The position numbers were made by a program, and so were the translations under genes. Shown here in pieces: positions 5,884 through 22,505 of a stretch of DNA of 24,000 bases; position 1 is the first letter of the stretch, and every line of letters begins with the position of its first letter. The stretch covers positions 60,790-84,789 of the forward strand of contig NZ_JBIVQG010000012.1 of assembly GCF_044755025.1 (NCBI RefSeq). Direction: 5' to 3'. Origin of the DNA: Paenarthrobacter sp. NPDC092416 (GTDB lineage: Bacteria > Actinomycetota > Actinomycetes > Actinomycetales > Micrococcaceae). The notes beneath the pieces are model-generated. The model had not been told where the DNA came from. It did not search any database and saw only the letters and a list, made by a program, of their open reading frames with translations.

Positions 5884-5935
5884 GTTCCCGCGACCTTCTT
5901 GGAAGCCGCGCCTTCCTGACCTTCTTTGACTACGG

Positions 5936-5984
5936 ATCAGCCCCTAGGCAACCATTTCGGGTTGCCTAGGGGCTGATGTTGTTT
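5936..5984. terminator. Perfect 18-bp stem / 6-nt loop hairpin between convergent genes (intrinsic terminator candidate)
   Basis: ATCAGCCCCTAGGCAACC (5936-5953) is the exact reverse complement of GGTTGCCTAGGGGCTGAT (5960-5977). The loop is ATTTCG and a weak T-tract GTTGTTTG follows on the + strand. It sits between the permease stop (5883) and the CMD-family stop (6014). Confidence 0.7.
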
Positions 5985-6013
5985 GAAAGTCGGTCACGAC
6001 GGAACGCGCACTC

Positions 6014-6496
6014 CTATTTCTTGGCCGTGCGCACCGGGTGCTCGCTCAGGATGGACAAGCGGTTGAAGGCGTTGATCCCAATGGCTGCCAGACACAACAC
6101 GCTGATTTGCTCGTCGGTGTAGTGCTGCCGGGCGCGTTCGAAGAGTTCCGGGCTCGGTCGCGATGTACTCATGCGGGTGATCTGCTCAGTGATTTCCATG
6201 GCGACCCGCTCGGCCGGTTCAAACATTGGCACTTCCTTGTAGACGGCCACCAAGGACAGACGCTGTTCCGTTTCGCCATACCCCAAGGCTCGGCGATGGT
6301 GCAGGTCCAGGCAGAATGCGCAGCCGTTAATCTGCGAGGCGAGGTAGTTCAGCAGTTCGATGGTCCGGCGCGGAATACCTGTTCGGTCCGCTTCCCCAAC
6401 CACCTGCTGTGCGTAGTGGCTCAACGTCGCGTAGAGCTCTGGCTGCTGCTTGTCCAGATAGCCGGCAAGGCGTGGTTTCTTTTCCTGATCGGGCAT
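6014..6496 (-). CDS. Carboxymuconolactone decarboxylase / AhpD-like family protein
   Basis: 160 aa with the AhpD-core CxxC signature in NGCAFCLDLHHR. Size and helical character are typical of the CMD family. Confidence 0.8.
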   Translation of the reverse strand: MPDQEKKPRLAGYLDKQQPELYATLSHYAQQVVGEADRTGIPRRTIELLNYLASQINGCAFCLDLHHRRALGYGETEQRLSLVAVYKEVPMFEPAERVAMEITEQITRMSTSRPSPELFERARQHYTDEQISVLCLAAIGINAFNRLSILSEHPVRTAKK

Positions 6497-6848
6497 GGTT
6501 GGAGCCTAGCGCACGGGCCTGCCCTGCGGGCTCCGGAGAGTGTCCACCGGGCAGCCGACCCGAGCCCGCGAAACCCCGTTTATTATCCAAGAATTCGTGG
6601 TTATCGACTTTATATGACAGCCAATTACCGTTTCCATTAAGTGATACTTAACTACTGATCAAAGAGGGTTTGAGTGCCGCGGCGGATTCATGAAAATACA
6701 TTCACAACTTCTATTGCGCGCGCATTCCAACAGTGATTCACTAAGGCGCAGTGATCCCTGCTGGGGCGGGAGAACTCCCTCTCTGTCCGGCGGGACACCC
6801 TGTTTCCACTATGACGTGAAAACAGCAATGTTGATGGAGGGCATCATT

Positions 6849-8597
6849 GTGAGTGCAGTTTCTTCGTCCCAGAATTTCAACCACGGGTTTCCCACGCCCG
6901 GCCCCCAGGATCCTTCCCCGCAGAAGGTCATGGACCACGTGTTTTTCCTCAATCAGGAAGAATGGAAAGACGTCCGCGAAACGGAGCAATTCGACCATAT
7001 TGTCATCGGCAGCGGGTTCTGTGGTTACGCCTTCGCCGAGAGGACGTTGACCGTAAATCCGCATGCCAGGATCCTCGTCATTGAGCGTGGCCCGTTCTTC
7101 CTGCCACAGCACTTCCAGAACCTGCCATTGCCCTATCGCGAGACCCTGGGCGGGCTCTCCGAAACTTTCCCGTGGACCTTGGCGGCAGCCACCGCCAACC
7201 AGCCTGCCGGCAAGATCTCGTGGCAGCACGGAATGGTCCCCTTCTATGGAGGCCGCTCCATTATGTGGAGCGCGTGGTGTCCACGCCCCGAGGAGGACGA
7301 GATGCGTGGCTGGCCACGCGCGGTCATGGATGCTGCAAAAGCCCACTTCAGCAGTGCCGAGGATTTGCTGAATGTGGTCAGCGCCGACCAAATCGACGCC
7401 GGCGCGTCGGCCGACGTCGTGGATCTCATCAACAACACCCGGCCCGTCTACGGGATCATGCAGAAGGCGCTCCAGGACCGGCTCGCCGTTGGCTTGCACA
7501 AGATCGACTCCGCGACCCGCTCCATGCCCGCGCCGCTGGCCGCGGCTTCGGGCGCCACTTCGGGCATCGACTTCGCCAAGTTCTCCACGCCAGCGGTCCT
7601 GCTTGAACTCTCGGACAGGCAGCAACGGTTGGCAGCTGCGGGCAAGGGATCGCCGCTCCGCATCGTCACGGACTGCACCGTGAAGAGCATCGTCCAGCAG
7701 AACGGTCAGGCCACTGCGCTCGATACCTCCCGGGGCGTGGTGAACATCGGCGGCGCCAATCTGGTGCTGGCCATGGGCACCCTGCCACCTGCCACGCTCG
7801 TGCTGAATTCCTTCCCGGATGTGCCCGGAGTTGGCGAGCAGTTCAGCGCCCACTTCATCACGTCCGTGGTGGCCAGGGTCCCCCGCAAGGACTACGACTT
7901 CAGCGAGGCACTGGGCGAACTGGAACTGGCGGCCATCTACATGGCAGGCATGAGTCCGGCCGGCATGCAGTACCACGTGCAGCTCTCCGTGCTCTCGGAC
8001 CGGAGTCCGGACAAGAATGCGCAGAAGTCCGAGCGGTACGCCCCGGACGTCGTCGCAACAGCGTCTCTGGCACAATTGCAGTCCTCCGAGGACTACTTGG
8101 TGTTCGTGTGCGCGGTTCTGGGCGAGCTGGACATCGATAATCCGGAGAATCACCTGCGCCACACCGGCGGAGCGGACCCCACCAGCAACGTGACGCTTCA
8201 GGTGCTGGCCAACTCCACCGACGACGCCACCTGGGACACCATGGATGAGGGCACCTTCCAGATGTTGGAGCGCGTGCTCTCGCCTGACGGAGCCGACCAT
8301 GTGGAGTACTGGCACGGGGATCCTGATACGGGAACGTGGGGCCTGGACCGCCCCAGTATTCCCGAACGCCGCGTCCCGGGGTTGGTGCACGAGAGCTCCA
8401 GCCTTCCAATCGGCGACGAGGAGAACTCCACCGTCGGCACCGACTACCGCCTCAACGGCGTCGACAATGTCTTTGTCGCAGGCGGTTCCCTGTGGCCGAC
8501 GGGCGGATCCTGGAACCCGACCATGACCATGGTCGCGTTGACGCAGGATCTTGCCGAACGTCTGGAGGCCGACGGCGGCACGGGAGATGCGCTGTGA
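6849..8597 (+). CDS. GMC-family FAD-dependent oxidoreductase (pyranose-oxidase / cholesterol-oxidase-like)
   Basis: N-terminal Rossmann motif DHIVIGSGFCGYAFA followed by VIERG. C-terminal GMC signature NVFVAGGSLWPTGGSWNPTMTMVALT with HESSSLPIG upstream. The start is set to GTG 6849 because GGAGG (6836-6840) lies 8 nt upstream. The ORF-track start at 6690 lies in AT-rich, non-coding-looking sequence. Confidence 0.8.
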   Translation: MSAVSSSQNFNHGFPTPGPQDPSPQKVMDHVFFLNQEEWKDVRETEQFDHIVIGSGFCGYAFAERTLTVNPHARILVIERGPFFLPQHFQNLPLPYRETLGGLSETFPWTLAAATANQPAGKISWQHGMVPFYGGRSIMWSAWCPRPEEDEMRGWPRAVMDAAKAHFSSAEDLLNVVSADQIDAGASADVVDLINNTRPVYGIMQKALQDRLAVGLHKIDSATRSMPAPLAAASGATSGIDFAKFSTPAVLLELSDRQQRLAAAGKGSPLRIVTDCTVKSIVQQNGQATALDTSRGVVNIGGANLVLAMGTLPPATLVLNSFPDVPGVGEQFSAHFITSVVARVPRKDYDFSEALGELELAAIYMAGMSPAGMQYHVQLSVLSDRSPDKNAQKSERYAPDVVATASLAQLQSSEDYLVFVCAVLGELDIDNPENHLRHTGGADPTSNVTLQVLANSTDDATWDTMDEGTFQMLERVLSPDGADHVEYWHGDPDTGTWGLDRPSIPERRVPGLVHESSSLPIGDEENSTVGTDYRLNGVDNVFVAGGSLWPTGGSWNPTMTMVALTQDLAERLEADGGTGDAL

Positions 8598-8998
8598 CCG
8601 CGGTTCCGGCTCTGGATCCGGCGGTCCTGCCCACCTTGCCGCCGATGACAGTCGCCGACGTCCTGGCCAGGCAGGACGGCGTCTATTGGGTGGTCAAGGA
8701 CGCAAACTCCGTATTCCTGTGGGTCAACCAGAACTTCGCCGACCTCGTAGGAATGACCAAGGCCGAACTGATCGGTCATCAGGACTCCAGGGCAGCCCAC
8801 GTTGCCCACGACAAGGAGGTGATGGCCAGCGGCAAGCCGTTGCTCAACTTCCACGAAGTCATTGAAGTTCCGCTGAAGGATGGCGGGACTGTGAACGTTG
8901 ACATCGTGACCCAGAAGGGGCTGCTGCGGTCGCTGGACACGGGCGCAATCATCGGGATCACTGTCTGCTTCTCGCTCGCGGATCCTCCCAATGACTGA
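8594..8998 (+). CDS. Stand-alone PAS domain protein (no output domain)
   Basis: The pattern VYWVVKDANSVFLWVNQNFADLVGMTKAELIGHQD...GKPLLNFHEVIEVPLKDGGTVNVDIVTQKGLLRS..GAIIGITVCF fits a single PAS fold. GTG 8594 overlaps the GMC stop (GTGA). ATG 8645 is an alternative start. Confidence 0.65.
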   Translation: MTAVPALDPAVLPTLPPMTVADVLARQDGVYWVVKDANSVFLWVNQNFADLVGMTKAELIGHQDSRAAHVAHDKEVMASGKPLLNFHEVIEVPLKDGGTVNVDIVTQKGLLRSLDTGAIIGITVCFSLADPPND

Positions 8999-9548
8999 CG
9001 TCGACATCGCGGGCCGCGGCCAGGATCTCCGCTCAGGCGGGCAAAGCGCGAAGGAATGGATCGAGCGGCTGGACTTGACGCCGTCGGGCGTTGGTGGCTG
9101 GTTCGCGCCCGCGATGGTGAGCGACGAGCTCATCGCGGGTTCGGCATTGCCTCCGCGTTTCGGCTGTGACCATCCGCTGTACAGCTCCAACTGGTACCTG
9201 CTGCAGGCGGGCGAAGTGCTGCAATTGCACACGCTGAAGCAGGACGAGCTGTGGTTCTTCCACGTGGGAACGCCCATCCAGCTGCACGTCTTTTCGCAGA
9301 CAGGTGGGTACTCGGAAACGGTCTTCGGGCCGGATCCGGACGCCGGTGAAATCCTGCATGGAGCGGCGCCGCATTCCACGTGGTTCGGTGCCGAGCTGGC
9401 TGGGCCGGGGTTCGCCTTGGTCAGCTGCAGCCTCTCTCCCGGCTACGAGCCAACGGATTCTGCAAAGCCCACGGGTGAAGATGTGGAGGCGCTCGTGGCG
9501 CAGTTCCCTGACCAGGCGGAGTTGATCCGCCGACTCGCGGTCGGGTAA
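8991..9548 (+). CDS. Cupin-fold protein, DUF985 (YML079w-like) family
   Basis: EWIERLDLTPSGVGGWFAP...LYSSNWYLLQAGEVLQLHTLKQDELWFFHVGTPIQLHVF resembles the DUF985 cupin family. Its ATG 8991 overlaps the PAS gene stop by 8 nt (ATGACTGA). Confidence 0.75.
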   Translation: MTDVDIAGRGQDLRSGGQSAKEWIERLDLTPSGVGGWFAPAMVSDELIAGSALPPRFGCDHPLYSSNWYLLQAGEVLQLHTLKQDELWFFHVGTPIQLHVFSQTGGYSETVFGPDPDAGEILHGAAPHSTWFGAELAGPGFALVSCSLSPGYEPTDSAKPTGEDVEALVAQFPDQAELIRRLAVG

Positions 9549-9557
9549 AGCGCTACT

Positions 9558-9591
9558 CGGAGTGCGCCCGTTGGGGGACGGGCGCACTCCG
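9558..9591 (+). terminator. GC-rich hairpin after the cupin gene (terminator candidate without U-tract)
   Basis: CGGAGTGCGCCCGT (9558-9571) pairs perfectly with ACGGGCGCACTCCG (9578-9591), with a 6-nt loop. It starts 10 nt after stop 9548. No T-tract follows. Confidence 0.5.
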
Positions 9592-9641
9592 CTGTGGCGG
9601 CCTGTAGCCTCATTGCATGAACAGTATGGGGGTGCTGGCCA

Positions 9642-10478
9642 ATGACTGGGACCGTGCGTAGTCGGCGACGATGGTGGCTGATCATCGCACTTCTGATAGC
9701 CGCGGCAGTAGCTGCCTATCCCATTGCGCTGGTGGTCAAACATATGATCGGCAGTGCTGTGGGGCCGACAACTGTGGCCCACAACGCCGATGGAACCGAG
9801 CGGACAATATTTTGGCGTGACTACCCGGGTGTCGCTGGGATTGACCCGCAGGAAACGCTTGATGGACCCTCGCCCGAACAGGCGTTGGAGACCGGCCGGA
9901 AAATGATCGCTGAGATCAGATCTGCCCTCTCTGCAGAGCTTCAGCTTGAGTGGGCGACCGACTATGACCCTTCCGGCACCGGCGGCCCGCTTGTCAGGCA
10001 CGTTTCCAACGGTTTCGGAGGTACGTCGCTGTTATCGGTTGTGAACGGCACCGAGTCGCAGAGCACGTCAGTGCCGGAGACATGGGCTGGAAAGCAGCGG
10101 GCCGTCGACATCATCGGCGACGTCGCGGACAAGTATGGATTCGGAGAGCCTGCCTTCGACGACCTCGCCGCCTGGTCCGATGAGGATCGCGTCCGGGATC
10201 TCGGCGGACGAACCCCGGATCAACAGGTGATCGTTTCCGGCATGGTCCCCGGGCCCGCTGGCCAGTGGCTCTCCTTCAGGTTCCAGGATCTTTCGAAGGA
10301 CACAGACGGCAGACTTGAAGAGCGGCTCCGCCCACCGGCAGGAAGCGGATGGCAGCTGAACACGGTGGCCCTCAGCTACGGGGCAAACGGACTTCTGGCG
10401 GAAGAAGACCGCGCTGCGTTCGAATCCCGGCTTCGGCCGTTTCTCGGGCTCACGCCGCCGGCGCCGCTGGAGAGTTGA
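9642..10478 (+). CDS. Hypothetical membrane-anchored / exported protein
   Basis: The N-terminal RRRWWLIIALLIAAAVAAYPIALVV is a signal-anchor helix and the rest is hydrophilic. Codon usage is GC3-rich like the neighbours. I recognise no family. Confidence 0.6.
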   Translation: MTGTVRSRRRWWLIIALLIAAAVAAYPIALVVKHMIGSAVGPTTVAHNADGTERTIFWRDYPGVAGIDPQETLDGPSPEQALETGRKMIAEIRSALSAELQLEWATDYDPSGTGGPLVRHVSNGFGGTSLLSVVNGTESQSTSVPETWAGKQRAVDIIGDVADKYGFGEPAFDDLAAWSDEDRVRDLGGRTPDQQVIVSGMVPGPAGQWLSFRFQDLSKDTDGRLEERLRPPAGSGWQLNTVALSYGANGLLAEEDRAAFESRLRPFLGLTPPAPLES

Positions 10479-10516: not shown

Positions 10517-10666
10517 CCCGACGGGACGTGAGAGACGGTCCACCCAAACCCGACGGGACGTGAGAGACGGTCCACCCAAACCCGACCGGACGTGAGAGAC
10601 GGTCCACCCAAACCCGACCGGACGTGAGAGACGGTCCACCCAAACCCGACGGGACGTGAGAGACGG
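10517..10666. repeat. Tandem repeat of a 32-bp unit, 4.7 copies
   Basis: Unit CCCGACSGGACGTGAGAGACGGTCCACCCAAA starts at 10517, 10549, 10581, 10613 and 10645 (last copy truncated). The only polymorphic position is S (G,G,C,C,G). The array lies between two convergent stop codons (10478 and 10670). Confidence 0.95.
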
Positions 10667-10669
10667 ATC

Positions 10670-11722
10670 CTAGTCGGCGGCATCGGCGGCGAGGCGGATG
10701 CCGTTCTCCGCCAGCCACACCGGGTTGAAGGCCTTGCTCAGGTAGTTCGTGCCGGCGTCGGGCGCTATGGCCACCACTACCGAACCGTGAGGCGCGGCGC
10801 GGGCCACCCGCAACGCGGCGGCGACGGCGAGCCCGGACGACGGACCCAACGCCAGCCCTTCTTCATCGAGCAGCCGGTGGACGGTGGAGTAGACCTCATC
10901 ATTGGGGATGCGCACGAAACGGTCCACGATGGAGCGGTCAAATGCCTTGGGCCACTCGGGCTCGGGCCAGGAATTGCCGACGCCGTCCACCAGGATCTCC
11001 CCAGGGTGTCCGCCGCTGTACACGGAACCGTAAGGGTCAGCCCCAACCACTTCCAGATGCCCGCCCGGCCGTGACGCTGCAACCTGTTCCCTCAGGTACC
11101 GGCCGTTGCCGCTGATGGTCCCGCCGGTGCCGATGCCGGCCACGAAATGGGTCACCAAACCCTGGGTCTGCTTCCAAATCTCGGGTCCCGTGGTTTGGTA
11201 ATGTGCTGCAGGATTGGCCGGGTTGTCGAACTGCATGGGCCTCCACGCGCCGGGGGTTTCGGCGGTGATCCGCGCCGCCACGGCACGGGCGTTCTCCGGC
11301 GATTCGGAGGGCGCGCTCCAGTCCGTGAGGATCACGCGGGCGCCGTAATTATGCAGCGCGGCGAGCTTCTCGTGCGAGATGGTGTCACCGGTGACCACCA
11401 CCACCGGATGCCCGGTCAGGCGCCCAATCAGCGCCAGGCCGATCCCCGTATTGCCCGACGTGCTCTCCACAATCGTCGCTCCCGGCCGCAGCTCCCCCGA
11501 CCTTTCCGCCGCGCGAACCATGCTCAGCGCAGTACGGTCCTTGATGGATCCGCCGGGGTTTTCCGACTCGAGTTTGATGTGGATGCTGCTGCCCAGGCCG
11601 CGGCCCATGGCCTCCAGCTTCACCAGTGGCGTGTTGCCCACTCTGTCCAGGACAGAGACATCGAGCCCGTCCGGCACCGCCGCCGCGTGGACGCCGTGCT
11701 TTCGGGTTGCTGTTTTCACCAT
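10670..11722 (-). CDS. Cysteine synthase / cystathionine beta-synthase family PLP enzyme (fold type II)
   Basis: Motifs: NTPLVKL, PLP-lysine motif NPGGSIKDR, substrate loop TSGNTG and glycine loop GIGTGGTISG. ATG 11722 overlaps the upstream gene's TGA (ATGGTGA). Confidence 0.85.
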   Translation of the reverse strand: MVKTATRKHGVHAAAVPDGLDVSVLDRVGNTPLVKLEAMGRGLGSSIHIKLESENPGGSIKDRTALSMVRAAERSGELRPGATIVESTSGNTGIGLALIGRLTGHPVVVVTGDTISHEKLAALHNYGARVILTDWSAPSESPENARAVAARITAETPGAWRPMQFDNPANPAAHYQTTGPEIWKQTQGLVTHFVAGIGTGGTISGNGRYLREQVAASRPGGHLEVVGADPYGSVYSGGHPGEILVDGVGNSWPEPEWPKAFDRSIVDRFVRIPNDEVYSTVHRLLDEEGLALGPSSGLAVAAALRVARAAPHGSVVVAIAPDAGTNYLSKAFNPVWLAENGIRLAADAAD

Positions 11723-13344
11723 GTCCCGCCTCCTTCGGCTTGTGCCACTTCACGGGCGGCGGCCCCTCGGTTCGCGGCAAAACGGTCGGCCGGAGCAGCC
11801 ACAACCAAAGAGTCCACAACCAACGCCTCCCGCAGCTCACGCCGCGCCCGCTCTACCAAGTCAGGTGCCGATGGCCGGTCCGTCAGCACATCAGCAAGTC
11901 GACCCACGACGGCGCCGGTCCCCTTTCCGAGCGGCCGCGCGGCTCCCGCTTCAAGCAGCAGGTAAGACGCCGTCAGCGCTTCGATCGTCAAAAGCTTTTC
12001 GGCCGCGTCCAAGGACTTCTCCAGTTGCTGCAAGGCAAGCGGCGCAAGGGTGGAATGGTCCTCGACGTCGGCCGAGAGGGTTGGGGCGCCAAGGGTCGCC
12101 GGTGCCGCCAGGAACTTCAGTTCGGCCAGCAATCCGGCGGCGGAGTACCACAACAGCCCGGGCAGTTCCTCCTGGGCAAGGCCTGACTCCGACGTCGCAG
12201 CCTGCAAGTGCTTCGCCCGGATGGCCCGCTGGGGCGGATACAGCTTGGCGATGCGTCGTTCGCTGGAAATCCCCACATGCGCGAGGGCCAACCGCAGGCC
12301 TTCAAAGGACAACGCGAGCTGCATGGGTTGGAAGTTCCCACCGGACACCATCAGCCCGGACTCGACATCCGCCAACGGGTTATCCCCGCGTCCGTTCAAT
12401 TCCACGTTCAACGCGGCGCCGAGTTGTGAAACCAAGGCGCGAAAAGCTCCGTGGGTCTGCGGCGCCGCACGGAAGGAGAGGGCATCCTGAACCGAAACTT
12501 CGGGACGGATGTCTTCCAGCCACCCGCCGCTGAGGAGACGGCGCACTGCAGCGGCCGATTCGCGTTGCCCGTCCACGGCCTTGGCCGCCTGGATTGCCGG
12601 CGAAAACGGGCTGAGGTTCCCACCGTCGTCGTACCTTGCGATCGTCTCCAGCGATAGTGAAAGCGCGACGTCGGCCAGTTCCGCAAGCTGCTGCAGCCGC
12701 ACCAGAGCGAGGGTGCCGGCGCCCACCGAATACGCGTTGGCACTGACCAGCGCGAGTGCCTCCCCGGGCGCCAGGCGCAATGGCTGTAGTCCGGCGTCGG
12801 CGAGCGCCTTGGCCCCTGGCACCAGCGTGCCATCAGCATCGAACGCCTCCCCCTCCCCGAGTGCGACGGCGGCGACGGCGGCCAGCTGGGTCAAGTCCGA
12901 GGAGCCCACCGAGCCTTCGCGCGGGATGGCGGGGAACACTCCGCGGTTGAGCAGCTCGGCATAGAAGCTGGCGGTTTCGGGTCGTACGCCGGAGCCGCCA
13001 CGACTGAAGCCGATGAGCCTGGCCAAAATCACGGCTCGTGCAGCGGAACGGTCCAGATACGGGCCGACGCCGCTGTTGTGATACCTGACCACCTGGATTT
13101 GGTACGCCAGGATCGACTTCTCCTCCACAGCGGTGTCCCGCCCGGAGCCGAGCAAGGTATTGAGCCCGTAAACCCGCTGACCCGAGGAAGCAGCCCGTTC
13201 CACCACCTCCCGCGAATGACCGATCAAAGACAACGCATCTTGGTTGAGTTTCACGTGAAACGTCGGATCCAACGCGGCTGCGGCAATGGCTGGGGCGTGC
13301 ACCGCCAAGGTACCGATCACCAGGGTCTTGGGCGTGGAGGACAT
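11716..13344 (-). CDS. Aromatic amino acid ammonia-lyase (HAL/PAL) family protein lacking the Ala-Ser-Gly MIO triad
   Basis: Family motifs: YGLNT, RYHNSGVG, QDALSFRAAPQTHGA, GDNPL, SGGNFQP and SADVEDHST. Canonical enzymes read GSVGASGDLAPLA; this protein reads GSVGSSDLTQLA (nt 12895-12915). The start is set to ATG 13344, 1 nt after the upstream stop. The ORF-track start at 13380 overlaps the upstream gene. Confidence 0.85.
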   Translation of the reverse strand: MSSTPKTLVIGTLAVHAPAIAAAALDPTFHVKLNQDALSLIGHSREVVERAASSGQRVYGLNTLLGSGRDTAVEEKSILAYQIQVVRYHNSGVGPYLDRSAARAVILARLIGFSRGGSGVRPETASFYAELLNRGVFPAIPREGSVGSSDLTQLAAVAAVALGEGEAFDADGTLVPGAKALADAGLQPLRLAPGEALALVSANAYSVGAGTLALVRLQQLAELADVALSLSLETIARYDDGGNLSPFSPAIQAAKAVDGQRESAAAVRRLLSGGWLEDIRPEVSVQDALSFRAAPQTHGAFRALVSQLGAALNVELNGRGDNPLADVESGLMVSGGNFQPMQLALSFEGLRLALAHVGISSERRIAKLYPPQRAIRAKHLQAATSESGLAQEELPGLLWYSAAGLLAELKFLAAPATLGAPTLSADVEDHSTLAPLALQQLEKSLDAAEKLLTIEALTASYLLLEAGAARPLGKGTGAVVGRLADVLTDRPSAPDLVERARRELREALVVDSLVVAAPADRFAANRGAAAREVAQAEGGGTW

Positions 13345-13345
13345 G

Positions 13346-14674
13346 TCAGAAGTCCAAGAGGTTCTGCCGGAAGCCGCCACTGCCGTAGCTCTTCCTCAAC
13401 AGGCCGCGGCGCCTGAGCTCGGGCGTGAGCTTGTCCAGCACGCCGTGGACGGTCACGGGGTCCACGAAGCCGGAGAACAGGAAACCGTCGCCACCGACAG
13501 CCGAGCCGGTCTCCTCGAGGTAGTCCGCAATTTCGCCCACCGTGCCGATGATCGAGTCCCCGGCACCGCCACTGCGGGCCTGCAGGATCTGGCGCAGGGT
13601 GGAACCGGGAGGCGCCGCCTTGGCAAAGTGGTCCAACGTGCCCTGGTTGCTGTTGGTGCTCAGCTCGGGCAGCGGGGCGTCGAGGTCGAACTGCTTGAAG
13701 TCGATGACCGAGAGATAAGAGATCGAGTTAAGCTGGCTGTCGATGTCCCGCTGGGTGAGCTGCCGGCGCTGGGCCCGCAATTCCTCCGCTTCAGCGGTAG
13801 AACCAACCACCGTGGGCTTCAGAACGAAAAGCACCTTGACGTCGTCCGGATTCCTGCCCGCCTTGGCCGCCTCAGCACGGATCGAATCCCTGTAGGACTT
13901 CATGCCGTCAACGCCACGGGCCAAGGCAATCGCCACATCCGCATGCCCGCCCGCGAACGCCTTGCCCCGAGGCGACGCGCCGGCCTGCACAAGCACCGGC
14001 TCCTCCGGCAGGGGCGCCGTGTTCAGCGGGCCTCGGACCTTGAAGAAATCGCCTTGGTGGTTGATCGGGTGAACCTTGGTGTGGTCGGCGTACACCCCGG
14101 CGTCCACGTCCTCAAGGACCGCACCAGGTTCCCAGCTCCGCCAAAGCTGCCTGACGACGTCGACGAATTCCTCCGCTTTCCCGTACCTCAAGTCGTGCTC
14201 GATCTGCTGGTCCAGCCCGTAGTTCTGGGCCGCGAGGTCGCTGCCCGAGGTGACCACGTTCCACCCCAACTGCCCCTCAGAGAAGTGCTGCAGCGTGGCG
14301 AGGAGCCTGGCAGCGGTGAAGGGCGGATAGAAGGAAGCGCTGACCGTGGGCACGATCCCGAGGTGCTCGGTCGCGGAAAGAAGGTACGGGACCAACGCGA
14401 GAGGATCGTGCTTGGGCGCAAAGGAAGCGTGGGCCAGCGAGACCTCGGCGGTGCCGCCGTAGGTATCGGGAACCGTGAGGGAATCCTCGATGATGAACAG
14501 GTCCAGGCCGGATTGCTCAAACGCCCGGACGGCCTCCTGATACAGGGCGGGTTTCTTCCAGTCGTAGCCCAGGCTGTAGCCGGGAGTCCCCCAACCCTGG
14601 ACTCCGAATCCGTGGCCCACAAACCAACCAAAATGCAGCATGGGCTTGAGTGTAGAACTGCTCCGTCCGTTCAC
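13346..14674 (-). CDS. LLM-class FMN-dependent monooxygenase, NtaA/SnaA/DszA subfamily
   Basis: About 440 aa. The N-terminus LHFGWFVGHGF..GW....Y.W....Y.E.VRAFEQSGLDLFIIEDSL is typical of the nitrilotriacetate monooxygenase A / DszA subfamily of luciferase-like monooxygenases. The start is either GTG 14674 or ATG 14641; I cannot decide between them. Confidence 0.85.
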   Translation of the reverse strand: MNGRSSSTLKPMLHFGWFVGHGFGVQGWGTPGYSLGYDWKKPALYQEAVRAFEQSGLDLFIIEDSLTVPDTYGGTAEVSLAHASFAPKHDPLALVPYLLSATEHLGIVPTVSASFYPPFTAARLLATLQHFSEGQLGWNVVTSGSDLAAQNYGLDQQIEHDLRYGKAEEFVDVVRQLWRSWEPGAVLEDVDAGVYADHTKVHPINHQGDFFKVRGPLNTAPLPEEPVLVQAGASPRGKAFAGGHADVAIALARGVDGMKSYRDSIRAEAAKAGRNPDDVKVLFVLKPTVVGSTAEAEELRAQRRQLTQRDIDSQLNSISYLSVIDFKQFDLDAPLPELSTNSNQGTLDHFAKAAPPGSTLRQILQARSGGAGDSIIGTVGEIADYLEETGSAVGGDGFLFSGFVDPVTVHGVLDKLTPELRRRGLLRKSYGSGGFRQNLLDF

Positions 14675-14827
14675 CGCGACCTGATTTCATGCGAAGTTAC
14701 AGGGGGTCGTACTGCGTCAATTATGCTCCCGTAGCGTCACATTTGGAGGCGCCTCGGACCGCCCCGGATTTCCACATACGGCGATCGGCATGTTCCACAA
14801 ACAGCCGGGGTCGGGAATGATCGCTCT

Positions 14828-16519
14828 ATGAGTGCACCAACCACACGCCCTTCCGCCAAGGAGTGGCTGTCCAGCGTCTGGGCGCTCAAAGGCTATAAGC
14901 GCGAATGGTTGCGGCACGACATCGTGGCGGGCGCGGCATTGTTCGCACTGCTCGTGCCCGCGGGCATGGCCTACGCGCAGGCAGCCGGGCTCCCTCCCGT
15001 CACCGGTCTCTACGCAACCGTGGTCCCGTTGCTGGTTTACGCCGTCGTCGGGCCCTCCCGAATCCTGGTCCTGGGACCCGACTCCGCGCTGGCCCCAATG
15101 ATCGCCGCGGCGATCGTGCCGCTGGCTGCCGGGAGCAACGAAAAGTCCGTGGCGCTGGCCGGGCTGCTTGCCGTGCTGATCGGGGTGATCATGATGGCGG
15201 GTTCAGCGCTGCGGCTCGGCACCATCACAGGTCTCCTATCCAAACCCATCAGGCTCGGCTACTTGAACGGAATCGCGCTGCTCGTGGCGCTTTCCCAATT
15301 ACCTGCCTTTCTGGGGATCGAGGCCGACGGCGACATCCGGGAAAAGCTCGCGACGGTCACCGCAGGGGTGCTGAACGGCGCTATCAACCTCACGGCCTTG
15401 CTGCTCGGCGTGGGGTCGCTGGCACTCATCTGGATCCCCCGGCTCCTGAAATGGAAGGTTCCCGGCGTCCTGCTGGCGGTGGTTGGCTCGTGCATCGCGA
15501 CGGCGGTTTGGGGCCTGAACGACGGCGTCAAAGTCACCGGCGTTTTGCCGCAAGGCCTGCCGATGCCGGCCCTGGGCGGAATTGGCTGGGCCGACGCACT
15601 CACCTTGCTCCCAGCCGCCGCAGGCATCGCCCTGATGGCTTTCGCGGACACCGGCGTCCTGTCGCAAACCCTGGCAGCCAAGGAAGGAAACCGGGTCTCC
15701 GGGAACAGGGAAATGGCAGCTCTGGGGGCAGCCAACGCTGCCACCGGGCTGCTGGGCGGATTCCCCATTTCAGGGAGCGCCTCCCGGACTCCCGTGGCCG
15801 TGGACGCAGGCGCCAAATCCCAAATGACGGGTGTGGTGGGCGCAACCCTCGTTCTGGCGTTCATGCTCCTGGCCCCCGGTGTTACCGAGTACCTGCCCTC
15901 CGCCACGTTGGCCGCCGTGGTCATTGCCGCGGCCATTGCGTTGGCGGATCCAGGCGGCGTCTGGCGGCTGCTGCGTATGAGCCGCAGCGAATCCGTAGTG
16001 ATGGTGGCAGCGTTCCTCGGCGTTCTGCTGGTGGGCGTCCTCCAAGGGATTGTGGTGGCCATGGCTTTGGCCCTCCTGGATTTTGTGCGCAGGGCGTGGG
16101 ATCCGTACCGCGCCGAACTCGGCTCCGAAGAGGGCCTGCCCGGCTATCACGACCTCGCCAGGCACCCGGACGGCGAACGGGTCCCCGGGCTGCTCATCCT
16201 GCGCTTCGATGCCCCGCTGTTCTTCGGCAACGGACAGGTCTTAGCGTCGTTTGTCCGGGAAGAAGTGGACGAGGCTCCAGACGACATCACCCACGTCATC
16301 CTCGCTGCCGAGCCGATCACCGGGATCGACACCACCGCGCTCGAGGATCTGGTCACCCTGGACGAGTGGCTCGCCAGGAAAGGGGTGGATTTGGTGTTCG
16401 CAGAGCTCAAAGGGCCCGTCAAAGACAAACTGATCCAGCTAGGCGCCGCGGCCCGTTTCACGCCGGACCACTTCTTCCCCACCACCGGCGCTGCAGTCCG
16501 CGCACTGAGGCGCGGCTGA
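14828..16519 (+). CDS. SulP-family inorganic anion (sulfate) transporter with C-terminal STAS domain
   Basis: The polytopic N-terminal region (DIVAGAALFALLVPAGMAYAQAAGLPPVTGLY, GFPISGSASRT) is characteristic of SulP. The C-terminal 120 aa or so (LLILRFDAPLFFGN...VILAAEPITGIDTTAL) is STAS-like. Confidence 0.9.
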   Translation: MSAPTTRPSAKEWLSSVWALKGYKREWLRHDIVAGAALFALLVPAGMAYAQAAGLPPVTGLYATVVPLLVYAVVGPSRILVLGPDSALAPMIAAAIVPLAAGSNEKSVALAGLLAVLIGVIMMAGSALRLGTITGLLSKPIRLGYLNGIALLVALSQLPAFLGIEADGDIREKLATVTAGVLNGAINLTALLLGVGSLALIWIPRLLKWKVPGVLLAVVGSCIATAVWGLNDGVKVTGVLPQGLPMPALGGIGWADALTLLPAAAGIALMAFADTGVLSQTLAAKEGNRVSGNREMAALGAANAATGLLGGFPISGSASRTPVAVDAGAKSQMTGVVGATLVLAFMLLAPGVTEYLPSATLAAVVIAAAIALADPGGVWRLLRMSRSESVVMVAAFLGVLLVGVLQGIVVAMALALLDFVRRAWDPYRAELGSEEGLPGYHDLARHPDGERVPGLLILRFDAPLFFGNGQVLASFVREEVDEAPDDITHVILAAEPITGIDTTALEDLVTLDEWLARKGVDLVFAELKGPVKDKLIQLGAAARFTPDHFFPTTGAAVRALRRG

Positions 16520-16595: not shown

Positions 16596-16703
16596 AGTAA
16601 TGAGCACCAGCGTTAAGCCCTGACTTGCTGGTCGGCAACCCTCTCTCCGGCGGGGTGCCTCAGGTGACTACTCGGCGTATCGACACTTCGAATCTGCAAG
16701 CGT
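16595..16703 (+). promoter_or_regulatory. SAM-IV-type S-adenosylmethionine riboswitch
   Basis: GAGUAAUGAGCACCAGCGUUAAGCCCUGACUUGCUGGUCGGCAACCCUCUCUCCGGCGGGGUGCCUCAGGUGACUACUC matches, nearly block for block, the actinobacterial SAM-IV core as I remember it (AUGAG..CCAGCG..AAGCCC..CUUGCUGG.CGGCAACCCUC...GGGGUGCC...GGUGA). P1 is GAGUA (16595-16599) / UACUC (16669-16673). A downstream GCAAG (16696-16700) can form the family's pseudoknot with CUUGC. The element ends 5 nt before SD GAGGAG (16708-16713) and sits upstream of a methionine-pathway operon. Confidence 0.8.
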
Positions 16704-16722
16704 GACTGAGGAGCACCCAGCA

Positions 16723-16989
16723 ATGTCTGAACCCACTGAAGAAAAACTCTCCTACCGCCTGATTACAGGTCCCGATACCCGTGATTTCTGCGAGCGCATC
16801 CACAATGCCCTCGCGGAGGGCTACGTGCTGCATGGCAGCCCGGCCGCCACTTTCAACGGCACCGACGTGATCGTGGCGCAGGCAATCGTGCTGCCCACCG
16901 CGATCGCCAGTGCCGATGCCGCCGTCGCCTCAGCTGTTGACAAGCTCGAGAACTACAACGACGAAGAAGCATTCGAGGGACACGCATGA
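16723..16989 (+). CDS. DUF1737 domain-containing small protein
   Basis: YRLITGPDTRDFCERIHNALAEGYVLHGSPAATFNG..VIVAQAIV resembles DUF1737. ATG 16723 is chosen because SD GAGGAG lies 9 nt upstream and the ORF-track GTG 16702 falls inside the riboswitch. Confidence 0.75.
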   Translation: MSEPTEEKLSYRLITGPDTRDFCERIHNALAEGYVLHGSPAATFNGTDVIVAQAIVLPTAIASADAAVASAVDKLENYNDEEAFEGHA

Positions 16990-17396
16990 GCTACGCAGGT
17001 GACCTGAGCCCGCAGGATGCGTGGGCAAAGCTTGAACAAGGTGCCATTTTGGTGGACGTGCGGACCGAGGGCGAATGGGCCCACATCGGCATTCCGGACA
17101 CCAAGGCCACTGAGAACGATCCCCTGTTCATCCAGTGGAACCTTGCCGGTGGCATCCCCAACTCGCGCTTCCTCGAGGACCTGCAGCAGCAGGCACCCGA
17201 GGGCGACGGCGTGGAACTCGTCTTCATCTGCCGCTCAGGACAGCGTTCCATCTCCGCTGCCATCGCCGCGACGCAGGCCGGTTTCACTGCCTACAACGTG
17301 CTTGAGGGCTTCGAAGGCGAGCCGGACCGTTACGGCGAACGAACAGTGAATGGCTGGAAGAACCGTGGCCTGCCGACGAACCTGGGGACCGACTAA
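16986..17396 (+). CDS. Rhodanese-like single-domain sulfurtransferase
   Basis: The active-site loop CRSGQRS (CRxGxR[ST]) sits in a 136-aa rhodanese-sized protein. The start overlaps the upstream stop (ATGA). Confidence 0.85.
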   Translation: MSYAGDLSPQDAWAKLEQGAILVDVRTEGEWAHIGIPDTKATENDPLFIQWNLAGGIPNSRFLEDLQQQAPEGDGVELVFICRSGQRSISAAIAATQAGFTAYNVLEGFEGEPDRYGERTVNGWKNRGLPTNLGTD

Positions 17397-17397
17397 A

Positions 17398-18606
17398 GTG
17401 ACTTTCAATCCCGATGCCGCCAGCTGGAGCCCCGATACTCAGGCAGTCCGCGGCGGCCTTGACCGAACCAACTTCCAGGAAACTTCTGAGCCTGTCTTCC
17501 TGAACTCGGGCTTCGTCTACGAATCCGCCGCTGCCGCGGAACGCGCCTTCACCGGCGAGGACGAACGCTTCGTGTACTCCCGCTACGGCAACCCATCGGT
17601 GGCGACGTTCCAGGAGCGGCTGCGGCTGCTCGAAGGAACCGAGGCGTGCTTTGCGACGGCGTCAGGCATGTCCGCGGTCTTCACCGCCTTGGGTGCTTTG
17701 CTGGCTGCCGGCGACCGTGTGGTTGCTGCCCGTTCCCTGTTCGGCTCGTGCTTCGTGATCCTCAACGAGATCCTGCCGCGCTGGGGCGTGGAAACAGTAT
17801 TCGTCGATGGTCCCGACCTTGAGCAGTGGCGTTCCGCGCTCTCGGAGCCGACTACCGCTGTGTTCTTCGAGTCACCATCGAACCCCATGCAGGAAATCGT
17901 GGATATCGCCGCGGTCAGCGAGCTGGCGCACGCGGCCGGTGCCACCGTCGTCGTCGACAATGTCTTTGCCACTCCCCTGCTGCAGCGCTGCGGCGAGTTG
18001 GGCGCGGACGTGATTGTCTACTCCGGCACCAAGCACATCGACGGCCAAGGACGCGTCCTCGGCGGCGCCATCCTGGGCACCAAGGAATTCATCGACGGCC
18101 CGGTCAAGCAGCTCATGCGTCACACCGGCCCGTCGCTGTCCGCGTTCAACGCCTGGGTACTGACCAAGGGGCTTGAGACGATCGGGCTGCGCGTGAACCA
18201 CAGCTCGGCGTCGGCCTTGAAGATCGCGGAATGGCTTGAGCAGCAGCCCGCCATCAGCTGGGTGAAGTACCCGCTGTTGAAGTCGCACCCGCAGTACGAG
18301 CTCGCCGCGAAGCAGATGAAGGCCGGCGGCACCGTGTTGACGTTCGAGCTGCTCCCCTCCGCGGGACGTTCTGCCAAGGAATCGGCGTTCGCGCTGCTCG
18401 ATGGGCTCAGCGTCATCGACATCTCCAACAACCTTGGCGACTCCAAGTCCCTCATCACCCACCCGGCCACCACCACTCACCGGGCCATGGGTCCGGAGGG
18501 CCGTGCGGCGATTGGGTTGAGCGACGGCGTGGTCCGATTGTCCGTTGGCCTGGAAGACGTGGACGACCTCATCCTGGATCTGGAGAAGGCCCTCAAGCAG
18601 GTCTAG
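17398..18606 (+). CDS. metZ: O-succinylhomoserine sulfhydrylase / Cys-Met-metabolism PLP enzyme
   Basis: Typical family pattern (TQAVRGG, YSRYGNPS, SGMSA, SGTKHIDGQGRVLGG with the PLP lysine, SLGDSKSLITHPATTTH). The start is set to GTG 17398, 1 nt after the rhodanese stop. The rhodanese + metZ pairing is known from mycobacteria. Confidence 0.85.
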   Translation: MTFNPDAASWSPDTQAVRGGLDRTNFQETSEPVFLNSGFVYESAAAAERAFTGEDERFVYSRYGNPSVATFQERLRLLEGTEACFATASGMSAVFTALGALLAAGDRVVAARSLFGSCFVILNEILPRWGVETVFVDGPDLEQWRSALSEPTTAVFFESPSNPMQEIVDIAAVSELAHAAGATVVVDNVFATPLLQRCGELGADVIVYSGTKHIDGQGRVLGGAILGTKEFIDGPVKQLMRHTGPSLSAFNAWVLTKGLETIGLRVNHSSASALKIAEWLEQQPAISWVKYPLLKSHPQYELAAKQMKAGGTVLTFELLPSAGRSAKESAFALLDGLSVIDISNNLGDSKSLITHPATTTHRAMGPEGRAAIGLSDGVVRLSVGLEDVDDLILDLEKALKQV

Positions 18607-19449: not shown

Positions 19450-20658
19450 TTACGGCCTGCGGACCCTGGTCAGCATCGGCGCGGGGTCTTTGTGTGCGTC
19501 CGCGGAGGCGCCGCGCATGGTCACTTTTGCTGCGTGCCCAACAACGGCCGCCAAGGCTTCACGGCTCGGTGGCCGCCCGGGTTGGCCCCCGCCGCCCCGT
19601 TGCCGACTGGCAAAACGTGACGCGGCCTCACGTTGCTCGTGTGCTCCGTTGCCGCGCTCGAGGATGTCCGAGACACCCGCTTTCACCAGATCGAGTTCAC
19701 CCTGGTCGTCCAGCACCGGGCTGAGGTAATCCACCAAGGCCCAGACGACGTCGGCCGCGGGTTGAGGGCGGAAGTCGCCGAAGTCCAAGAGGTCACCGCG
19801 CAACCCTGAATTGCTCGCCTGCCAACTCGCCATCCTTAGCAGCGCCGTCGGCACTGTGGAGGGTTCCACGCCGTCGAGCATTTCCAAGGAAGCCGTCTCC
19901 ACCAAGGCGCGCACCAGCACCGCAATGAGCGCGGCGTCCTCGGCACGGAGGCAGACATCGGCAACCCGGACCTCCACCGTGGGGTGATTGCGTGAGATCC
20001 GGGCGTCGAAGTAGATCATGCCTTCATCCAGGAGCACGCCCGTCTCCAGGAGCCGCCTGACAATGCGGCGGTAGGCAGTTAACGAGCCAAACACGGCCGA
20101 AGGACCAGAGGTGGGCCAGCGGTTCCAAGCTTGCGTGCGGTAGCTGTCGAAACCCGTGGGGAGACCGCGCCAGAACGGGGAATTGGCGCTGATGGCCGTG
20201 AGCACCGCGAGTTTGTCCCGCATATGGTCGAGGACCACCACGCCTTCCTCCGGCGACTCCACTGAGGTGTGCACGTGGAACCCGCACGTCAGTTGCTCGT
20301 GGGCGGTCAGCCCGAAGCGTTCCAGCATCTCCGCATAGCGCGGGTCAGGGGTGGTGTGGCTCGTGGAGGCCATCGGGGAGGTCGCGATGGCGGCTACGCT
20401 GGCACCTTGCTTCCGGGCCGCCTCGTTGGCCATGGCCCGGCCGCGTCGGATCTGGTGGAGCAACTCCGCGTAGCTGTGGCAAGGGCGGGTCTGGGTTTCG
20501 ATTTGCTCCAGCTTGAGCTCATGGCTGAGGCCCGTTTCCAACGCTGGGTCCCTTGACGGCTCTTCATTCCGGGCGAGGAGGGCATCCGCCATAGCCAAGG
20601 GCTCGCCCGTCACAGGATCGACGATGAGTAGCTCTTCCTCAACCCCGAAGGTCCGCAT
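19450..20658 (-). CDS. Carboxylate-amine ligase, glutamate-cysteine ligase family 2 (YbdK/GCS2)
   Basis: The N-terminus [15 protein letters not shown] is the GCS2 signature. [19 protein letters not shown] and ERGNGA..QR are further family blocks. The start is set to ATG 20658. The ORF-track extension to 20862 runs through non-coding repeats. Confidence 0.85.
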
Positions 20659-20773
20659 GGTTCCATTCTGCGTCACAGATGCAGGGGTGGACAGGGCTTG
20701 GCCCGAGGTGCGGGCCCGGAGCCCGAACGTGCTGCCTGGGGCCGCACCACGTGCCGCCATCCGCACCAGTCCC

Positions 20774-20849
20774 AACCGGCGCGGATGGCGCGAAAGGGTG
20801 CGCCGACCGAACGAACCGGCGCGGATGGCGCGAAAGGGTGCGCCGACCG
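20774..20849. repeat. 36-bp direct repeat, 2 copies with 40-bp period
   Basis: AACCGGCGCGGATGGCGCGAAAGGGTGCGCCGACCG occurs at 20774-20809 and again at 20814-20849. A 10-bp piece (CGCCATCCGC, 20755-20764) is the inverted copy of GCGGATGGCG inside each unit. Confidence 0.9.
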
Positions 20850-20880
20850 CGCCAACCAACACGTGCGCCGAACGAAAGGG

Positions 20881-22404: not shown

Positions 22405-22505
22405 ATCCAAGAAATATCACAAGTGATCTATATTCGATGCACAAAACGCCGATACAGCGGCAAAGGTCACATGGTACCCACCTCGTGCGATAGAGGCCGT
22501 TCGCG

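Follow-up and report, generated by a model that had tools for sequence, protein, structure and literature searches.

We analysed a 24,000-nucleotide stretch of the Paenarthrobacter sp. NPDC092416 genome (contig NZ_JBIVQG010000012.1; hereafter, the window), in which three packed minus-strand genes encode a luciferase-like monooxygenase (LLM), a lyase with the fold of histidine and phenylalanine ammonia-lyases (HAL/PAL), and a pyridoxal 5′-phosphate (PLP) enzyme. Judged from its sequence, the middle protein is a HAL/PAL-fold member lacking the 4-methylideneimidazole-5-one (MIO) electrophile, its nearest characterized relatives are ergothionase-type trimethylamine lyases, and it is itself predicted to be a trimethylamine-releasing (betaine) lyase. 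It is not an ergothionase sensu stricto, because the thiolate-binding Lys384 of that enzyme is replaced by an invariant Tyr. We propose that the cassette may serve the aerobic, flavin-dependent salvage of sulfur (and nitrogen) from ergothioneine-family betaines; we infer the substrate, the chemistry of the LLM and the PLP enzyme and the order of the steps, and give this proposal somewhat short of an even chance.

The LLM gene (13346–14674, minus strand; 442 aa from a GTG start at 14674) is the first gene of the cassette, followed by the lyase gene (11716–13344, minus strand; 542 aa counted from the ATG) and by the last gene, PALP, encoding the PLP enzyme (10670–11722, minus strand; 350 aa). 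A preliminary description made from the DNA sequence had noted a 1-nt gap and a 7-nt overlap between these genes, and direct reading of both junctions confirmed them. At the LLM/lyase junction TGAcATG, read in 'ttcTGAcATGtcc', the LLM stop codon occupies 13348–13346 and the lyase ATG 13344–13342. At the lyase/PALP junction ATGGTGA, read in 'acATGGTGAaaa', the PALP ATG (11722–11720) and the lyase stop codon (11718–11716) share the 7-nt overlap. The coupled stop and start codons, along with the retention of the trio in related genomes given below, support the view that the genes form a single translationally coupled unit. The GC content of the cassette equals that of its flanks.

The lyase passed the fold test with 360 bits against PF00221 (cut-off 27), as expected from its earlier assignment to the HAL/PAL family. 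It scored under the cut-offs of the hutH models (TIGR01225, 293 vs. 539 bits; NF006871, 297 vs. 524 bits) and, with still lower scores, under those of the equivalog models for PAL and tyrosine aminomutase (TAM). The loop carrying the MIO triad in HAL and PAL lies at 12880–12915 (minus strand, residues 144–155) and reads GSVGSSDLTQLA, with no Gly and one residue fewer. It had been placed at nt 12895–12915, which gives the correct start but spans only the first seven residues of a loop that runs from 12915 to 12880. HMMER alignment to solved HALs and TAMs placed a one-residue gap precisely at the Gly of Ala-Ser-Gly (GSVGSS-DL vs. GSVGASGDL), and the loop aligned without gaps to that of ergothionase 6s7j (SSIGEGDITTLS). 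The shortened, Gly-less loop without the triad was borne out in all 84 orthologues, none of which had a full-length A/S/T/C-S-G triad. No such triad ever occurred in the loop in HMMER alignments to five solved HAL/TAM structures or in a MAFFT alignment of approximately 140 cluster representatives. The alignment check proposed at the outset, run here against HALs, TAMs and ergothionase, found no triad in register.

In ergothionase and the histidine-betaine lyases, the active site comprises a Tyr base, Gln/Arg/Asn carboxylate ligands and His/Glu imidazole ligands, and Lys384 of ergothionase (T. denticola numbering) binds the ergothioneine thiolate and is essential (bioRxiv 10.64898/2026.04.22.720169). 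In the cassette lyase, Tyr59 (13168–13170, minus strand; VYGLNT) corresponds to the HAL catalytic base Tyr53 and was Tyr in 83 of the 84 orthologues. The carboxylate ligands Gln286 and Arg292 belong to QDALSFRAA (12463–12489, minus strand; residues 286–294), the altered form of QDAYS.RC that had been pointed out before, in which Leu289 takes the position of HAL Tyr280 as in QDPLSFRCA of ergothionase. Y59, Q286, R292, N337, F338 and E428 were kept in 83–84 of the 84 orthologues, and N322 of the DNPL motif was invariant in a six-sequence alignment. H89, equivalent to the HAL imidazole ligand His83, was kept in 75 of 84; it was invariant in Micrococcaceae and replaced by Ser in nine of the 28 Microbacteriaceae or metagenome-assembled orthologues (e.g., L002/L004, P0124). 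This conservation of catalytic residues across 84 orthologues indicates that the lyase is an enzyme under selection. The lyase and ergothionase 6s7j also share S-x-N-A (N-G-T in HAL) and QD(A/P)LSFR (QDAYSLRC in HAL). At the Lys384 position, alignment to 6s7j (IQKTF vs. LLWYS) placed Tyr400 of a Trp399-Tyr400 pair (12145–12150, minus strand); this Tyr was present in 84 of 84 orthologues and was preceded by Trp in most members.

A homologue search of 1.84 billion cluster representatives, with the loop, S-x-N-A and QDxLSFR motifs tabulated, returned the short loop together with S-x-N-A and QD(A/P)LSFR in all of the approximately 45 best representatives, and true HALs with GSVGASGDLAPLA appeared only from an E value of about 1e-64. 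In neighbor-joining (NJ) trees, all 60 of 60 bootstraps recovered the MIO-less, short-loop clade as monophyletic, and 59 of 60 did so for the cassette clade. The former value indicates that the MIO had already been lost in the ancestor of a large clade and that its absence here is no local defect. The AlphaFold2 model of the lyase (pLDDT 91) had ergothionase 6s7j as its top PDB match (Foldseek E value 1e-30, TM score 0.89–0.90), narrowly ahead of HAL (1b8f, TM score 0.81–0.86); the top sequence match in the PDB was HAL 7tqr (190 bits). The MIO-less clade contains the trimethylamine-releasing lyases, and ergothionase, which the preliminary description had cited as a MIO-independent parallel, was the best structural match; the parallel stops at Lys384, whose replacement sets the cassette lyase apart from a strict ergothionase. 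In the databases, the lyase is named “aromatic amino acid ammonia-lyase” or “histidine ammonia-lyase”.

To place the cassette in other genomes, a pattern scan based on the six-sequence alignment was run on one genome per GTDB species and yielded 80 loci, all in Micrococcales. The loci were mapped by tblastn, and counts were limited to the 77 loci with sufficient flank; GC3-based gene calling was imperfect on these loci, and the tblastn maps and provided gene calls were used instead. The trio was present in 75 of the 77 loci, a recurrence far beyond chance. The gene order, whose conservation across Micrococcales had been suggested as a check, took two family-specific forms. All 23 Microbacteriaceae loci (Leifsonia, Glaciihabitans, Conyzicola, Naasia, Agreia, and Cryobacterium) showed PALP-LLM-lyase, and 52 of the 54 Micrococcaceae loci (Arthrobacter, Paenarthrobacter, Pseudarthrobacter, and Psychromicrobium) showed LLM-lyase-PALP; in the remaining two Micrococcaceae loci, PALP was inverted and the LLM gene was missing, respectively. 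The identity of the lyases between the two families was 48%, and metagenomic relatives with lyases 42–50% identical again showed PALP-LLM-lyase or LLM-lyase. Conservation of the trio despite rearranged gene order is strong evidence for functional coupling.

The families assigned earlier to the two flanking genes held in profile searches. The LLM scored 130 bits against PF00296 and 368 bits against TIGR03860 (NtaA/DmoA), above the cut-off of 280, and is predicted to be a two-component FMNH2-dependent enzyme of the NtaA/DmoA/DszA subfamily. Its nearest solved relatives, at similar distances, were DmoA (6ak1), DszA (5tlc), YtnJ/MoxC (1tvl) and HcbA1. The best PDB matches scored 207–245 bits vs. 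601 bits (BLASTP) for a Microbacteriaceae cassette orthologue (67% identity), and the 120 best LLM homologues were all from Micrococcaceae or Microbacteriaceae. The preliminary description had found no flavin reductase partner. This holds for the window, in which a scan of the larger open reading frames (ORFs) revealed no separate NAD(P)H:FMN reductase, but not for several Microbacteriaceae versions, in which an MsuE-type FMN reductase (TIGR03566, 249 bits vs. a cut-off of 212) adjoins the cassette in cis. The flavin reductase of the Paenarthrobacter genome may be encoded elsewhere. The start of the LLM was ambiguous between GTG 14674 (442 aa, the PGAP choice in Paenarthrobacter) and ATG 14641 (431 aa, as in most orthologues); conservation upstream of the gene extended as far as GTG 14674.

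The PLP enzyme scored 245 bits against PF00291, and its nearest solved relative was the core of M. tuberculosis cystathionine beta-synthase (CBS) Rv1077 (296 bits). In the alignment to Rv1077, the PLP motifs were intact: GGSIKDR (SxKDR, with the PLP-binding Lys), TSGNTG (Asn loop) and GIGTGGT (Gly-rich phosphate loop). The enzyme scored below the equivalog cut-offs (TIGR01137, 339 vs. 510 bits; TIGR01139, 273 vs. 351; TIGR01138, 279 vs. 394) and lacked the C-terminal Bateman (CBS) domain pair. It is predicted to be a fold-type II beta-replacement enzyme of the CBS catalytic core/CysK type. Its identity to the Microbacteriaceae cassette orthologue was 60%. Relative to M. tuberculosis CBS, the cassette enzymes carry a four-residue, Trp-rich insertion (NSWPEPEW/TRWPESNW vs. 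ED----FW), found at residues ~239–246 of the window PALP and in the orthologue at 5628–6674 of locus L002, in a loop by the active-site entrance; it may be linked to acceptor specificity.

All MIO-deficient lyases studied so far reportedly require a trimethylammonium leaving group, and a neutral residue at the Lys384 site goes with sulfur-free substrates (Asn in hercynine lyase, Gln in N-π-methylhercynine lyase). With Tyr in place of the thiolate-binding Lys, the substrate of the cassette lyase is most likely a histidine betaine with a neutral C2. Gene context points the same way. Sister-clade lyases with Tyr at the Lys384 site, 45–46% identical to the query (L085 and L088), lie in operons with a urocanase homologue and an S-Me-THD protein. 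The former best matched the NCBIfam models for thiourocanate hydratase or S-methyl thiourocanate hydratase and the latter that for thiohydantoin desulfurase, in each case a little under the curated cut-off. A BCCT betaine transporter follows another sister-clade lyase. These hydratase-like, desulfurase-like and BCCT neighbors suggest an ergothioneine/hercynine-type betaine as the substrate. Most economically, the lyase would act on a histidine betaine of the ergothioneine/hercynine family without a C2 thiolate; the most likely candidates are hercynine or an S-modified ergothioneine such as S-methyl-ergothioneine. A pathway for a sulfur-containing or betaine-type amino acid, as originally suggested, is therefore supported by gene context and narrowed to a histidine derivative. 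A sulfur theme also recurred around the cassette: in Microbacteriaceae as an MsuE-type reductase, second NtaA/DmoA LLMs, a rhodanese, a MetY-like sulfhydrylase and a polar-amino-acid importer, and in Micrococcaceae as a SAM-IV-controlled DUF1737-rhodanese-metZ operon, sometimes with SulP.

In the pathway that we propose, the DszA/DmoA-type LLM, with FMNH2 from an MsuE-type reductase and O2, would carry out an oxidative carbon–sulfur step on a 2-thioimidazole. It could act first, converting ergothioneine to hercynine and sulfite by S-oxygenation, or after the lyase, on a thiourocanate-type product. The lyase would convert the histidine betaine to a urocanate-type acid and trimethylamine, the Tyr base removing the β-proton while a Gln/Arg/Asn clamp holds the carboxylate and the His/Glu pair binds the imidazole. 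The CBS-core/CysK-type enzyme would then pass the released sulfur into cysteine or cystathionine. The net result would be a flavin- and O2-dependent alternative to the hydratase plus thiohydantoin-desulfurase route.

Several observations weigh against this proposal. The cassette lyase clade contains no characterized enzyme, and NJ bootstraps did not settle its sister group (in 12 of 60, it was formed by representatives carrying Asn or Gln in place of Lys384), on which the substrate assignment is not based. The Ser at residue 89 in nine orthologues may mark a substrate shift within the clade. The sulfur-related neighbors in Micrococcaceae are explicable by plain synteny, the metZ operon having its own SAM-IV riboswitch, and the ABC importer is of the SBP_bac_3 (polar amino acid) type and not of the OpuAC/BCCT type that a betaine would call for. 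Release of sulfur as sulfite would leave no obvious need for a CysK/CBS-type enzyme; NtaA-family enzymes also cleave C–N bonds, so that a non-sulfur role of the LLM is possible. Finally, Arthrobacter cavernae L061 (~6050–10470), the sole locus with sufficient flank to lack the LLM gene, still has the lyase and PALP genes, with SulP directly abutting the lyase.

A serious alternative, although in our view an unlikely one, is that sulfur is moved via a cysteine thioether and not as free sulfite or sulfide. Here the PLP enzyme would make, or an ABC transporter import, S-(imidazolyl or urocanyl)-cysteine; a GNAT enzyme would N-acetylate it, the LLM would release N-acetylcysteine by C–S cleavage, and the lyase would dispose of the histidine-betaine or urocanate-adduct moiety. 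The context in Microbacteriaceae invites this analogy. A GNAT gene is convergent to and directly downstream of the lyase gene at 15 loci of Microbacteriaceae and at the metagenomic loci L003, L087 and L091 (~1.3 kb away in L092), the cassettes of this family are usually flanked by the SBP_bac_3 polar-amino-acid ABC importer and in several loci adjoined by the MsuE-type reductase, and YtnJ (1tvl) is among the nearest solved relatives of the LLM. Together these recall the Bacillus pathways for dealkylation of S-alkylcysteine and S-succinocysteine; B. subtilis YxeK and CmoJ reportedly cleave C–S bonds to give N-acetylcysteine. The beta-replacement type of the PLP enzyme, with its clade-specific insertion NSWPEPEW by the active-site loop, would also suit such a conjugate. 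However, neither Micrococcaceae loci nor the window have a GNAT or deacetylase gene beside the cassette, the GNAT gene is on the opposite strand, and the LLM is only ~30–35% identical to YtnJ-type enzymes, no nearer than to DmoA or DszA. To our knowledge, no S-(imidazolyl)cysteine-type conjugate is an abundant metabolite.

A related scheme would carry the thione sulfur of ergothioneine-type 2-thioimidazoles into cysteine aerobically, without hydratase or desulfurase chemistry. The CBS-like enzyme would join the thione sulfur to a serine-derived backbone, or a transporter would import such a conjugate; the DszA/YxeK-like LLM would cut the imidazole–sulfur bond, in effect reversing the logic of EgtB/EgtE, and the lyase, devoid of both the MIO and the thiolate-binding Lys, would remove trimethylamine from the desulfurized betaine. 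We consider this sequence unlikely to hold as a whole. If true, ergothioneine would have a third fate with a mechanism of its own, and a HAL-fold enzyme would for the first time be paired with a two-component flavin monooxygenase.

Two further readings are less well supported than the cysteine-conjugate route. One, which we regard as decidedly unlikely, is a betaine catabolism free of sulfur: the lyase would free trimethylamine from an aromatic or histidine betaine, the LLM would perform C–N cleavage or N-demethylation on the betaine or the released methylamine, and the PLP enzyme would merely be a co-regulated cysteine or cystathionine synthase. TIGR03860 does include the C–N-cleaving NtaA and EDTA monooxygenase, and sister lyases co-occur with the BCCT betaine transporter. 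Yet the PLP enzyme co-evolves and co-localizes with the lyase-LLM pair in two families despite the rearranged order, sulfur-related neighbors recur in independent contexts, and the His and Glu imidazole ligands are retained in the lyase. The other, which seems improbable, is a biosynthetic cassette in which the PLP enzyme makes a β-substituted alanine, the LLM hydroxylates or oxidizes it, and the HAL-fold protein works synthetically or processes some intermediate on the way to a small natural product. The CysK-fold SbnA and O-ureidoserine synthase were among the PALP matches, and HAL-fold enzymes are found in biosynthetic clusters; against this, the cassette has no conserved NRPS, PKS, ligase, methyltransferase or exporter neighbor, the genes around it encode importers and a reductase that typify sulfur-starvation systems, and the characterized MIO-less enzymes are catabolic.

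That the lyase is an ordinary hutH product whose triad was missed through misalignment, or an inactive copy in decay, is scarcely credible despite the HAL 7tqr match and the database names, because no alignment put a triad in register, the hutH scores were far under the cut-offs, no hutU or hutI gene lies nearby, the catalytic residues are invariant in the 84 orthologues and thus not decaying, and the MIO-less state is ancestral to a large clade; the loop without the triad and the sub-cut-off scores exclude a histidase identity.

Set beside characterized systems, the lyase resembles ergothionase (T. denticola 6s7j and Burkholderia sp. HME13) in its fold, MIO-less short loop, S-x-N-A and QDxLSFR motifs, Tyr base, and Gln/Arg and His/Glu ligands. 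It differs from it in being only ~26–30% identical, in having Trp-Tyr where ergothionase has Lys384, and in its gene partners, an LLM and a CysK/CBS-type enzyme instead of thiourocanate hydratase and thiohydantoin desulfurase. The histidine-betaine trimethylammonia-lyases of Shewanella (S. woodyi Swoo_3913; S. oneidensis SO_3299, for N-π-methyl histidine betaine) are likewise MIO-less with the same catalytic residues, but have a neutral Asn or Gln, not Tyr, at the Lys384 position; they are periplasmic and coupled to flavocytochrome/urocanate reductases in anaerobic respiration, whereas the cassette lyase is cytoplasmic and coupled to an O2-dependent monooxygenase. The clusters for ergothioneine and S-methyl-ergothioneine, in which a lyase accompanies (S-methyl)thiourocanate hydratase and (S-methyl)thiohydantoin desulfurase (NCBIfam NF058529–NF058532 cover these named families), are represented by the sister-clade lyases L085 and L088; the partner enzymes of the cassette are entirely different. 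In its LLM, of the NtaA/DmoA subfamily, the cassette resembles two-component sulfur-scavenging systems (DszA, DmoA, SfnG/MsuD with MsuE; B. subtilis YtnJ/CmoJ and YxeK), and in the adjoining MsuE-type reductase, SBP_bac_3 importer and GNAT gene of Microbacteriaceae it resembles the YtnJ/YxeK systems with GNAT and an amino-acid ABC transporter, but the LLM is not an orthologue of any characterized member. We know of no HAL-fold lyase in such systems. Compared with HutH, the PF00221 fold and the equivalents of Tyr53, His83, Gln277, Arg283, Phe329 and Glu414 are kept, whereas Ala-Ser-Gly is missing, Tyr280 is replaced by Leu and Asn195 by Ser, scores are below the cut-offs, and hut genes are not nearby.

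Among the sulfur metabolites of microbes and fungi in soil, ergothioneine and its derivatives are abundant; medically, they are of interest as antioxidants and as a possible source of trimethylamine. Few fates of ergothioneine are known: cleavage by ergothionase with subsequent hydratase and desulfurase steps, the reductive desulfhydration carried out by anaerobes, a dioxygenase/desulfinase route, and respiration-linked lyases. The proposed sulfur salvage, if true, would add an oxygen-dependent branch to this catabolism in Micrococcales that are common in soil and in association with plants, such as Arthrobacter, Paenarthrobacter and Leifsonia. It would also widen the substrate determinants of MIO-less lyases to Tyr or Trp at the Lys384 site and correct hundreds of “histidine/aromatic amino acid ammonia-lyase” annotations. 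Direct testing is feasible, since the proteins are three soluble ones and the candidate substrates can be purchased or synthesized. MIO-less lyases are known; the full-text literature searched, which did not reach key subscription papers, contained no description of the gene trio, the cassette clade, its Trp-Tyr signature or the obligate lyase-LLM-CysK/CBS pairing, which, as far as that literature goes, are new.

Upstream of the LLM gene, alignment of 14 Micrococcaceae upstream regions revealed a conserved 5′ leader or promoter-proximal block (14675–14730, minus strand; GGGAGcATAATtGACG...GTAAC..cgcATGAAATCAGG). This block contained no sigma-70 consensus, no known RNA or riboswitch was detected ahead of the cassette at Rfam gathering thresholds, and neither an intrinsic terminator nor a sigma-70-like promoter for the cassette was found in the sequence.

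The SulP gene (14828–16519, plus strand) is divergently transcribed from the cassette, as the preliminary description stated, but its presence beside the cassette is not conserved. Only about one third of the Micrococcaceae loci, each bearing a Paenarthrobacter or Arthrobacter sp. label, have it between the cassette and the metZ operon, and it was absent from all Microbacteriaceae loci mapped; it was therefore rejected as a component of the system. The DUF1737-rhodanese-metZ operon is the conserved divergent neighbor in Micrococcaceae. It comprises a SAM-IV riboswitch (16596–16708, plus strand; 82.5 bits), a DUF1737-like ORF (16702–16989, plus strand; 95 aa), a single-domain rhodanese gene (16986–17396, plus strand; 136 aa) that overlaps the metZ ORF by 47 nt, and the gene of O-succinylhomoserine sulfhydrylase MetZ (17350–18606, plus strand). 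Having its own riboswitch and being adjacent only in Micrococcaceae, this operon was also rejected as part of the cassette. In some Microbacteriaceae loci, the genes around the cassette also include one for another NtaA/DmoA LLM, for a two-domain rhodanese or for a MetY-like sulfhydrylase. The scanned ORFs of the window included no hutU or hutI near the lyase and no urocanase or S-Me-THD domain; the locus maps (nine window and eight L002/L001 queries) did not search for the latter two.

Directly after the PLP gene stop codon, a 32-bp tandem repeat (CCCGACGGGACGTGAGAGACGGTCCACCCAAA) is present in 4.7 perfect to near-perfect copies (10517–10666), with no other copy in the window or in the 90 loci examined. 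A 160-aa CMD/AhpD-like gene with a CxxC motif comes immediately after the PLP gene, in the same orientation, in 25 related Micrococcaceae loci; of these, 24 bear a Paenarthrobacter or Arthrobacter sp. label and the other is A. cavernae L061. In the window, this gene (6014–6496, minus strand) is parted from the PLP gene by ~4.2 kb of plus-strand genes and the tandem repeat. The intervening stretch, which looks like a strain-specific insertion, encodes a GMC-type oxidoreductase (6690–8597, plus strand), a cupin_5 protein (8991–9548, plus strand) and a 278-aa ORF without a family (9642–10478, plus strand). On the other side of the cassette, the gene of a 509-aa fusion protein with an N-terminal HTH_3/HTH_31 and an EPSP-synthase domain (20881–22410, minus strand) adjoins that of a GCS2-family glutamate-cysteine ligase (19450–20862), and this pair recurs in the Arthrobacter oryzae locus L001.

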